Shown here one piece after another: positions 59,447-60,001 of a stretch of DNA of 64,000 nucleotides (the stretch's first letter is position 1; each line of letters opens with the position of its first letter). The position numbers and the translations under genes were made by a program. The notes beneath the pieces were generated by a model. That model did no database searches, was not told the DNA's origin, and saw nothing but the letters and a program-made list of their open reading frames with translations. This DNA comes from Nannocystis sp. RBIL2 (lineage in GTDB: Bacteria > Myxococcota_A > Polyangia > Nannocystales > Nannocystaceae), in assembly GCF_026626745.1 (NCBI RefSeq), contig NZ_JAPNJW010000002.1, forward strand, positions 1,382,151 through 1,446,150, in the 5' to 3' direction.

Positions 59447-60001
59447 ATGACTGACGTTAACTCCAAGGGCCCGGCCCCAATTCAGGTCCCGGTGGCCGAC
59501 AGCGCGATCCCGGAGGCCGAGGGCGGCCCTGCGGCACCCACCTCGAACGCCGTCGCCGACGCCCGCGACAAGCTTCTGGCAGCCATTGGCGCCGAAGCCC
59601 AGCTCGTTGCGGAGAAGTCCGCCGGGGATGCGTCCAAGCCGCTCGCGGAACTTGCCCGCGCCTTCAACAATGTGACCATCAAGAACATGATCACCGGTAC
59701 GTCGCAAGCGGACGTCGCCCTGCTCGTGGTGCCTGCAGACCGGGGAGGATTCGAGGGCGCCTTCGCGCGTGAAACCCAAGTGAGGCTGTTGACGGCCATC
59801 GGCGGCGAAGCCCAGCACCTCGCGGAGAAGTCCGCCGGCCAGGCATCCACCGCCCTGGCGGAGCTCGCACACGCCTTTACGCTAGTAACCAGCCCCAGCC
59901 CCGCAGCCGCACGGATCGCGCTCGCGCCCGCAAGCGGCCTCACATTGATGAACGAAGTGGCGATCGACGGGAGTGTGACGGTCACGGTTAGATATCTCTG
60001 A
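59447..60001 (+). CDS. Leader-family protein with duplicated helical segment interrupted by an eEF1A/EFL-like fragment
   Basis: [15 protein letters not shown]...[120 protein letters not shown] is identical to eukaryotic EF-1alpha (bacterial EF-Tu has VKNMITGAAQMD). Confidence 0.55.
   Translation: [184 protein letters not shown]

Follow-up and report, generated by a model that had tools for sequence, protein, structure and literature searches.

ORF184 of Nannocystis sp. RBIL2, a mosaic protein carrying a eukaryotic-type elongation factor 1A segment between two modules of an apparently undescribed family

We analysed a 64,000-nucleotide (nt) stretch of the genome of Nannocystis sp. RBIL2 (contig NZ_JAPNJW010000002.1, positions 1,382,151 to 1,446,150), called here the window, and within it the open reading frame (ORF) of 184 codons located at 59447-60001, ORF184. 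This ORF very probably belongs to a family, apparently not described before, of modular mosaic proteins originating in actinomycetes, in which conserved helical modules are combined with short variable pieces, named cassettes in the following. The cassette found between the two modules of ORF184 is a segment of the eukaryotic elongation factor 1A (eEF1A), and, judged from sequence comparison, the whole module-eEF1A-module unit is old and inherited and was not built in this genome. With moderate confidence, we consider that the overall best explanation is a selected foreign-peptide mosaic, derived from actinomycetes and working by mimicry.

ORF184 and its eEF1A cassette

The ORF that a first-pass annotation of this DNA had placed at 59447-60001 of the forward strand was present; it codes for 184 amino acids (aa) followed by a stop codon, with an AAGGAG located 8 nt ahead of the ATG. 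The GC content at third codon positions (GC3) of its reading frame is 74-84%. Scored against a profile of the helical module made from 33 modules (alignment A1), ORF184 exhibited an E-value of 1.8e-37 with two matching stretches. Its parts follow one another in the order leader of 15 residues, proline/alanine-rich spacer, module A, eEF1A cassette, shortened module B and tail, with the following coordinates.

59447..60001, + strand: ORF184, mosaic protein with two helical modules (profile match, GC3)
59426..59446, + strand: conserved ribosome-binding region, AAGGAG and 8-nt spacer before the ATG (direct repeat D2)
59447..59491, + strand: leader, 15 residues (three copies in the genome, all in the window)
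59561..59665, + strand: helical module A, residues 39-73 (alignment A1; AlphaFold2 helices 33-57 and 63-83, with a predicted local distance difference test score, pLDDT, of 79-87)
59678..59785, + strand: eEF1A cassette, residues 78-113, corresponding to the switch II helix of the G domain, strand beta4 and the following loop (eEF1A matches)
59786..59887, + strand: helical module B, residues 114-147, without its first ~10 residues (DNA identity to the paralogue)
59924..59998, + strand: C-terminal tail cassette, residues 160-184, ending in RYL (cassette sharing; modelled beta hairpin)

The helical segment had been reported to occur twice in ORF184 and once in the neighbouring ORF at 58646-59029 (ORF127), and this is what we found, at residues 39-73 and 114-147 of ORF184. 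The AlphaFold2 model computed with the family alignment pairs helix 33-57 with helix 63-83 and helix 103-128 with helix 133-148 and shows a terminal beta hairpin, the core of the eEF1A cassette being a loop between the helix pairs with a pLDDT below 50. The ribosome-binding region (direct repeat D2) is common to ORF184, ORF127 and a third ORF of the window carrying a piece of ribosomal protein S1 (S1 ORF), and a nearly identical string precedes a Streptomyces family gene in locus L028. The N-terminus of the ORF184 leader is also that of Streptomyces genes in L021 (gene from ~10147) and L012 (15696-16016), and the NSKGPAP leader is present as well in Streptomyces genes of L012, L020, L021, L024 and L028. 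The tail cassette is shared with proteins P0179 and P0206 and with the end of an ORF in Streptomyces locus L009.

We found that the similarity of the central piece to eEF1A, proposed by the first-pass annotation, is significant. Among 5.8 billion proteins, the best full-length relatives of the cassette show 86% identity over 36 aa with an E-value of 2.8e-10, and correspond to the eEF1A of Apicomplexa (Cardiosporidium, Eimeria, Toxoplasma) and of the stramenopile Cafeteria. These closest full-length relatives are canonical alveolate/stramenopile eEF1A and not the elongation factor-like protein EFL, a likeness to which had been proposed for the cassette. In a phmmer search of PDB sequences, archaeal/eukaryotic EF1A and HBS1 were matched with E ~1e-5, and EF-Tu only with 0.04-0.14. 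The GC content of the cassette is 61%. The closest thing in the host genome, as seen by tblastn, are the EF-Tu genes, with 65% identity to the cassette over 23 residues. The eEF1A assignment would have fallen with a matching GTPase in the host or with a similarity lost in a proper search; no matching host GTPase was found, and neither the eEF1A piece nor the S1 piece, both claimed to be foreign, has a closer source in the host genome.

eEF1A is a protein of ~450 residues, of which ORF184 holds 36, the segment from switch II to beta4 (86% identical, residues 78-113), without G1, G3, G4 and domains II and III. The P-loop G1 motif GxxxxGK[ST] and the NKxD (G4) motif are both absent from the 184 aa of ORF184. 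The switch II DxxG motif (G3), which had been described as missing before the piece, is indeed not found ahead of the IKNMITG segment, its place being taken by the end of the module plus NNVT. Against the Pfam model GTP_EFTU (PF00009), ORF184 scores 16.1 bits, below the gathering threshold of 26.5. A 36-residue slice of a G domain neither binds nucleotides nor folds independently, and ORF184 is predicted to be incapable of acting as a GTPase.

Positions 59637-59846 are covered, with 3 mismatches, by a 210-nt contig from an independent soil metagenome, which runs across both junctions of the cassette and so excludes that the chimera arose in the assembly of this genome. Another soil contig matches 36 nt (59677-59712, 4 mismatches), flanked on both sides by a GC-rich GTPase gene (IIDAPGHKEF ... 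AAIVIVDAN), and thus soil bacteria with an EF1A-like switch II at the DNA level exist. This contig was rejected as the donor of the cassette, given the 4 mismatches in 36 nt and the differing sequence of the next strand. In P0032, an ENA contig of 886 nt, the eEF1A cassette is found without a helical module and is followed by what appears, by eye, to be a piece of succinate dehydrogenase flavoprotein.

The eEF1A fragment had been interpreted as inserted between the copies of a duplicated segment, an interpretation that we do not retain, the tripartite arrangement being shared with Kitasatospora and Streptomyces. The same order of module, eEF1A piece and module is present in Kitasatospora P0002 and Streptomyces P0003. 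Two bigger mosaics of Streptomyces, P0076 and P0096, likewise hold the eEF1A piece between the same modules. In P0076, P0096 and ORFs of L016, L018 and L019, flagellin pieces are followed by a module, a linker, the eEF1A piece, a module and a CS1-pilin piece. The eEF1A cassette is present in 5 proteins. At the DNA level, the window cassette is 73-80% identical to the Streptomyces copies, with a BLAST match of 83% over 93 nt to L019, and a K-to-R change relative to native eEF1A is common to most cassette copies. Because the same unit exists in Streptomyces and Kitasatospora, with homologous DNA and a shared K-to-R change, it was inherited and not assembled locally. The Streptomyces copies extend to GQTR and continue with the full start of the next module, and the window copy is short of ~10 residues between GQTR and LL. 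Microhomology at the junction between eEF1A and module was considered and rejected, since in Streptomyces the piece runs as far as GQTR, and what the window copy lacks is the start of module B.

That eukaryotic DNA was inserted in this very genome, into a paralogue with a duplicated helical segment, is scarcely credible. Such a local event could account for a module B nearly identical to the neighbouring paralogue and for a cassette GC content below that of its surroundings. It is contradicted by actinomycete proteins, from Kitasatospora and several from Streptomyces, in which the same modules enclose the same cassette, by the 73-83% DNA homology to the actinomycete copies, with a synonymous divergence (dS) of ~1, and by the derived K-to-R change common to most copies. 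The near-identity of module B to the paralogue is a recombination patch and not the footprint of an insertion.

The module family and selection on its cassettes

The module profile, scored against 1.84 billion representative proteins with a threshold of E<=1e-3, gathered 186 clusters with one to five modules per protein, the named hosts being Streptomyces, Kitasatospora, Embleya and Nocardia. With the whole of ORF184 as query, the same helical segment was recovered in dozens of hypothetical proteins of Streptomyces, Kitasatospora and Embleya. In the host genome (12.5 Mb), a regular-expression scan and tblastn found three family ORFs, all in the window, and no family member turned up in the 40 related genomes searched, ten of them from congeners. 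Because the family is abundant in actinomycetes and absent from the host relatives searched, the direction of transfer is taken to be from actinomycete to host. The host possesses seven Omp85-family genes and is thus a diderm, not an actinomycete; LptD was sought in the host without success, by a search that detected it in just 2 of 14 control genomes.

Neither a model nor a relative of the module was found in Pfam, NCBIfam, PHROGs or PADLOC, and among PDB sequences its profile had no match below E 0.5. A feature search of the ESM Atlas with the module gave only unnamed actinobacterial clusters, with scores below 0.9, and no description of the family was found in the literature. The hairpin turn of the module reads S-[AP]-G-Q in 33 modules. 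We observed also a second conserved module, beta-rich (PEDIGTLSIEYRDGQPVIVVSGG..IPA.L.VVD..GN.VA.Y.AG), which alternates with cassettes in the same manner and is present in L012, L020, L021, L024, L025, L028, P0157, P0158, P0168 and P0169. It can share a protein with the helical module, is often located behind the NSKGPAP leader, and was not found in the window's genome.

Searches of 150 members against Pfam identified cassettes from the N- and C-terminal regions of flagellin (Flagellin_N/C), GTP_EFTU, RRM_1, HSP70, Flg_bb_rod, the VgrG OB domain and porin, to which NCBIfam added S1, EF-G and VgrG-related cassettes. Isolated segments gave weak single Pfam matches to M28 peptidase, C2, tectonin, the EF-Tu P-loop, porin and carboxylesterase. 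Cassettes resembling, by eye, multicopper oxidase and lipase-type esterase had no Pfam support and are not relied on. The comparison with the host genome by tblastn revealed cassettes from the Rhs core end, DnaK and EF-Tu domain II, together with one piece read as GroEL. CS1 pilin is the commonest cassette in precomputed Pfam assignments and forms the largest cluster, with 21 segments in 19 proteins. Shared clusters, 21 in number, contain 90 of the 201 non-module segments, and the same cassettes recur in differing orders and combinations across the family. To our knowledge, Streptomyces lacks chaperone-usher pili, outer-membrane porins and eEF1A. A flagellin gene is also missing from Streptomyces (PMC11161748). 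The flagellin, pilin, porin and eEF1A cassettes are therefore foreign to their carriers, since Streptomyces lacks such genes.

In L006 (11015-12427) and L013 (6909-8342), one helical module replaces ~20 residues between pieces that are adjacent in native flagellin, and the ORF of this flagellin mosaic ends exactly at the DPxGH motif of the Rhs core. A neighbour of 660-690 aa, mostly without an assigned family, recurs in L024 (7158-9146), L012 (13034-15103), L014 and L020. In the L012 copy, hemopexin repeats are accompanied by 24 residues that match a fungal-type PDR ABC-transporter motif, and the L024 copy begins with VDPTGN, like the Rhs core end.

We then considered how the sequences have diverged. 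Orthologous Streptomyces mosaics compared over their whole length exhibited a dS of ~0.31 and a nonsynonymous divergence (dN) of 0.07-0.09, that is a dN/dS of 0.22-0.28, and the flagellin and pilin pieces inside them a dN/dS of 0-0.3. For the eEF1A cassette, the comparison of the window with four Streptomyces copies gave a dS of 0.8-1.2, a dN of 0.10-0.17 and a dN/dS of 0.11-0.19. For the S1 cassette of the window compared with that of Nocardia, the values were 1.2, 0.10 and ~0.08, respectively. Because of the low dN/dS in these comparisons, the cassettes are under purifying selection and have been kept as protein sequence long after their capture.

Sister ORFs and genomic context

The two other family ORFs of the window are the following.

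58646..59029, + strand: ORF127, paralogue with leader, one module and a tail cassette (ORF list, genome search)
54182..54445, + strand: S1 ORF, with the same leader and then directly domain 1 of a Pseudomonas-type ribosomal protein S1 (bS1 homology)

The tail cassette of ORF127 (PPNGSPIGDDY...) is common to Streptomyces P0194, P0209, P0240 and P0272. Module B and ORF127 (58780-58905) show 93% DNA identity over 126 nt, of which 73 nt in a row are the same (58801-58873 = 59806-59878). The second copy of the segment had been described as DNA-identical to the paralogue, which holds for this run, but the sequence given as its anchor differs by one base (GGCGGC, not GGCGCC) and identity starts at GAAGCCCAGC. 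Module A shares 71% DNA identity with the ORF127 module. By halves, the ORF127 module matches module A at 94% identity in its 5' part and module B at 100% in its 3' part. The leaders of the window are 95% identical over 55 nt, and between the patches of identity the stretches of the paralogues are unrelated. Such patchiness is what gene conversion or unequal crossing-over among modules would produce, and through events of this kind any cassette stays in frame.

An S1 fragment behind the same leader had likewise been announced, and the S1 ORF does match domain 1 of bS1 with an E-value of 2e-19. The piece is 88-89% identical over 66 residues to the S1 of fluorescens-group Pseudomonas, the host's own S1 giving 31%, and the GC content and GC3 of the ORF are 53% and 59% in a genome of 71% GC. 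Nocardia P0168 carries the same S1 cassette with two common derived changes, IDH for IDY and EVQV for EVHV, and a nine-residue remnant of the S1 cassette is found behind the same leader in Streptomyces L028. Past the stop codon, at 54443-54520, there follows what seems to be a decayed S1 homology with in-frame stops (GFGEV*LIVRRK*RG..KHGRW, compared with the native GFGETKLSREKAKR); the captured DNA was thus longer than the present S1 ORF.

The three ORFs of the window are located in a patch bounded by remnants of the insertion sequence (IS) IS66. The features of this surrounding region, and of the actinomycete loci compared with it, are listed below.

52612..53805, + strand: IS66 transposase remnant, left of the island (DDE_Tnp_IS66, E 3e-29)
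60675..60860, + strand: IS66 Orf2 (TnpB) remnant, right of the island (TnpB_IS66, E 2e-12)
60862..61533, + strand: type I terpene synthase fragment (Terpene_syn_C_2, profile positions 8-92 of 199)
48598..50151, + strand: 517-aa protein with a C-terminal jacalin-like lectin domain (Pfam Jacalin, E 4e-15)
54082-54144, 54707-54769, 58372-58434 and 59315-59377 (+ strand for 59315-59377): ~60-nt upstream element, candidate promoter/operator (copies in the genome)
L007: tectonin lectin beside family genes
L025: two ricin-B lectins beside family genes
L027: PLL beta-propeller lectin and terpene synthases beside family genes
L028: terpene synthases beside family genes

Several IS66 pieces (Orf2, transposase) surround the locus, at 44085-44459, 50996-53805 and 60675-60860, and the first 51 residues of the ORF at 60862-61533 recur at 44401-44616. 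The ~370 N-terminal residues of the 517-aa jacalin protein have no assigned family, and its gene lies 4 kb upstream, in a patch of 63% GC adjoining IS66 genes. An operon coding for GSCFA, WcbI-like and GT4 glycosyltransferase proteins is located between the S1 ORF and ORF127 (54848-58118), its GT4 giving a weak match to a model named 'GT4 in conflict systems'. This operon was dropped as a partner of the family, having no counterpart in the actinomycete loci.

The ~60-nt element precedes the three window ORFs, the GSCFA operon and a gene for a tectonin beta-propeller lectin 3 Mb away, upstream of which its fifth copy is located (G000:C2:4439532-4439611). The core of the element (CCGATGTAATTCCGAATGAAGATGAATCC ... 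GGAGTATCA) stands 90-270 nt upstream of five imported-looking genes, and its minus strand scores as terminator-like. The element was not found in the Streptomyces loci, a sigma-70 scan found no promoter, and a k-mer search of the Streptomyces upstream regions found no strong common motif.

The tectonin gene adjoins a terpene synthase gene whose product is 74% identical to a synthase in Streptomyces L021 and 65% to one in L028. Family genes are present at both of these loci, and one of those in L021 has nearly the leader of the window. In the congeners of the host, the best match of this synthase reaches only 28-33%, and the tectonin gene has no close counterpart. These observations point to an import of the ORFs, the lectin and the terpene synthase from an actinomycete. 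The lectin neighbours suggest a role towards other cells, possibly eukaryotic grazers or prey.

Proposed mechanism, rival explanations and significance

In the proteins of this family, a short leader is followed by one to five helical-hairpin modules of ~40-55 residues, and cassettes of ~20-80 residues, copied from proteins of other organisms, are placed after or between them. The modules recombine at the DNA level as handles, always shuffling the cassettes in frame. In the mechanism that we propose, they would fold into a helical scaffold presenting the cassette as an exposed, non-enzymatic peptide. Selection would preserve the likeness to the source protein, and the product may mimic abundant, conserved proteins of competitors, prey or grazers. 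The mimic might then compete for the partners of its target, co-aggregate with it, bind in a dominant-negative manner or serve as bait for whatever recognises the target, and the genes would be part of a set for dealing with other organisms. Because selection keeps the likeness in a piece unable to have the activity of its source, the useful property would most simply be the likeness itself. We put forward this sequence-mimicry mechanism tentatively, as a real possibility that we judge doubtful on balance. A more specific version, which we regard as speculative and rather unlikely, is a heritable, shufflable library of cassettes taken from proteins of prey, competitors or grazers and displayed on the scaffold as target-specific interfering or seeding peptides. 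Its sources would be Gram-negative flagellin, pilin, porin, EF-Tu, EF-G, S1, DnaK and GroEL and eukaryotic eEF1A, Hsp70, RRM and C2. An arsenal recording enemies at the protein level in this way would have no described counterpart.

Several points weigh against the mosaic working by mimicry. The AlphaFold2 model of ORF184 is weak, with a pLDDT of 68 and a predicted template modelling score (pTM) of 0.37. The family proteins have no signal peptide, and no route of delivery into other cells is known for them. The remaining 111 of the 201 non-module segments are unassigned singletons, and the identification of cassettes is skewed towards conserved motifs. The S1 ORF looks partly decayed, with homology running past its stop. 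If the captures had been independent, part of the low dN/dS of the cassettes would stem from the donors. Derived residues and flanks held in common argue against independent captures, and the case for a single one depends on one or two such residues. Finally, lectins and terpene synthases accompany the family in about half of the loci examined, L006, L023, L024 and L026 having neither, and Streptomyces chromosome arms are rich in genes of these types anyway.

Among the other explanations, we consider unlikely that the proteins are secreted or injected effectors, the leader and modules serving as an export or loading signal (type VII, contractile injection) and the cassettes as variable payload or filler. 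The conserved N-terminus and variable C-terminus recall polymorphic toxins, and Rhs-core-end and VgrG pieces as well as an Imm5-like gene are found in family loci. However, no toxin or immunity family is present at 58-60.6 kb, the Rhs core-end pieces occurring only as cassettes of Streptomyces members, the hairpin turn of the module has no W-x-G motif, no secretion genes were found in the neighbourhoods examined, and the family persists in a host whose diderm nature, taken from Omp85, makes a type VII system unexpected. A reading as precursors similar to ribosomally synthesised and post-translationally modified peptides (RiPPs), with the module as enzyme-recognised leader and the variable pieces as core peptides released as natural products, is quite unlikely. 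It would agree with the conserved N-terminal and hypervariable C-terminal parts, the many paralogues per genome with repeated leader-core units, and hosts that are prolific makers of natural products. Against this, the Pfam families listed for 10 actinomycete loci and for the window neighbours include neither a modifying enzyme nor a recognition element, some cassettes are whole domains (RRM, S1 OB, flagellin D1), and copies of housekeeping proteins kept similar to their source follow no known RiPP logic.

Equally improbable is that the locus consists of horizontally acquired debris in an IS-ridden island, its ORFs being accidental GC-rich frames or short-lived functionless chimeras. Debris would be in keeping with the IS66 remnants on both sides, the terpene synthase fragment, the S1 homology beyond the stop codon, a family GC3 below the host average and a family confined, on the host side, to one species. 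It is at odds with a dN/dS of 0.1-0.3 across modules and cassettes, with junctions that are all in frame in mosaics of up to five modules, with a strong conserved ribosome-binding site and with orthologous mosaics kept across several Streptomyces species. We hold it for very unlikely that the module is a selfish in-frame element, a mobile DNA insert invading coding sequences in the manner of the Rickettsia palindromic elements, as might be proposed from the flagellin mosaics, where the module lies between pieces nearly adjacent in native flagellin, and from module DNA conserved at 75-88% across phyla. Most flanks are mutually unrelated, for example eEF1A beside CS1 pilin, and the genes invaded would be truncated foreign pieces and not host genes, the flanks in ORF184 being leader, 36-aa piece and tail. 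The module moreover contains no inverted repeat, and its protein sequence is itself under purifying selection.

The mimicry mosaic can be set beside several known systems: orphan toxin modules of Rhs and contact-dependent inhibition (CDI) systems, the silent cassettes vls and pilS, decoys of nucleotide-binding leucine-rich repeat (NLR) receptors, Pack-MULE and Helitron elements, and prochlorosins. As in the family, Rhs/CDI orphan modules and vls/pilS cassettes place variable pieces between conserved repeats that act as recombination handles, with patchy gene conversion. Unlike them, the family has neither expression site nor immunity genes, and its pieces copy unrelated foreign housekeeping and surface proteins instead of toxins or the variants of one antigen. 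Integrated decoys of plant NLR and capture by Pack-MULE or Helitron also fuse gene fragments into a carrier, the decoys being kept for their resemblance. The family differs from these in being bacterial, with a small helical module as carrier, no surrounding transposon structure and other organisms, not the host, as sources. RiPP families such as the prochlorosins likewise combine a conserved N-terminal part with a hypervariable C-terminal part in many paralogues, but in our family no nearby modifying enzyme was found, the modules are repeated within the protein, and the cassettes can be whole domains mimicking known proteins. Many family cassettes contain conserved beta-strand segments. We know of no natural counterpart of designed, target-derived aggregating peptides. 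Engineered synthetic amyloids share a fragment with their target protein (PMC7275043). These designed peptides resemble the family in having a carrier with a short segment identical to an abundant target; they are an engineered concept, whereas the family is natural and only a candidate for aggregation. The family is of another kind than the cassette, decoy or precursor systems that are known.

If the selected foreign-peptide mosaic is correct, bacteria would capture short coding pieces from unrelated organisms, eukaryotes included, and fix them in frame between standard modules, and the captured pieces would be kept source-like by selection and passed across phyla. Both this way of making proteins and this class of mimicry between organisms would be new, and the family would supply natural peptides directed at conserved essential proteins. 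Hundreds of hypothetical proteins, and the odd "flagellin domain" annotations in Streptomyces, would then be accounted for. Whatever its function, the family is a clean system for the capture of gene fragments and the shuffling of cassettes in bacteria.

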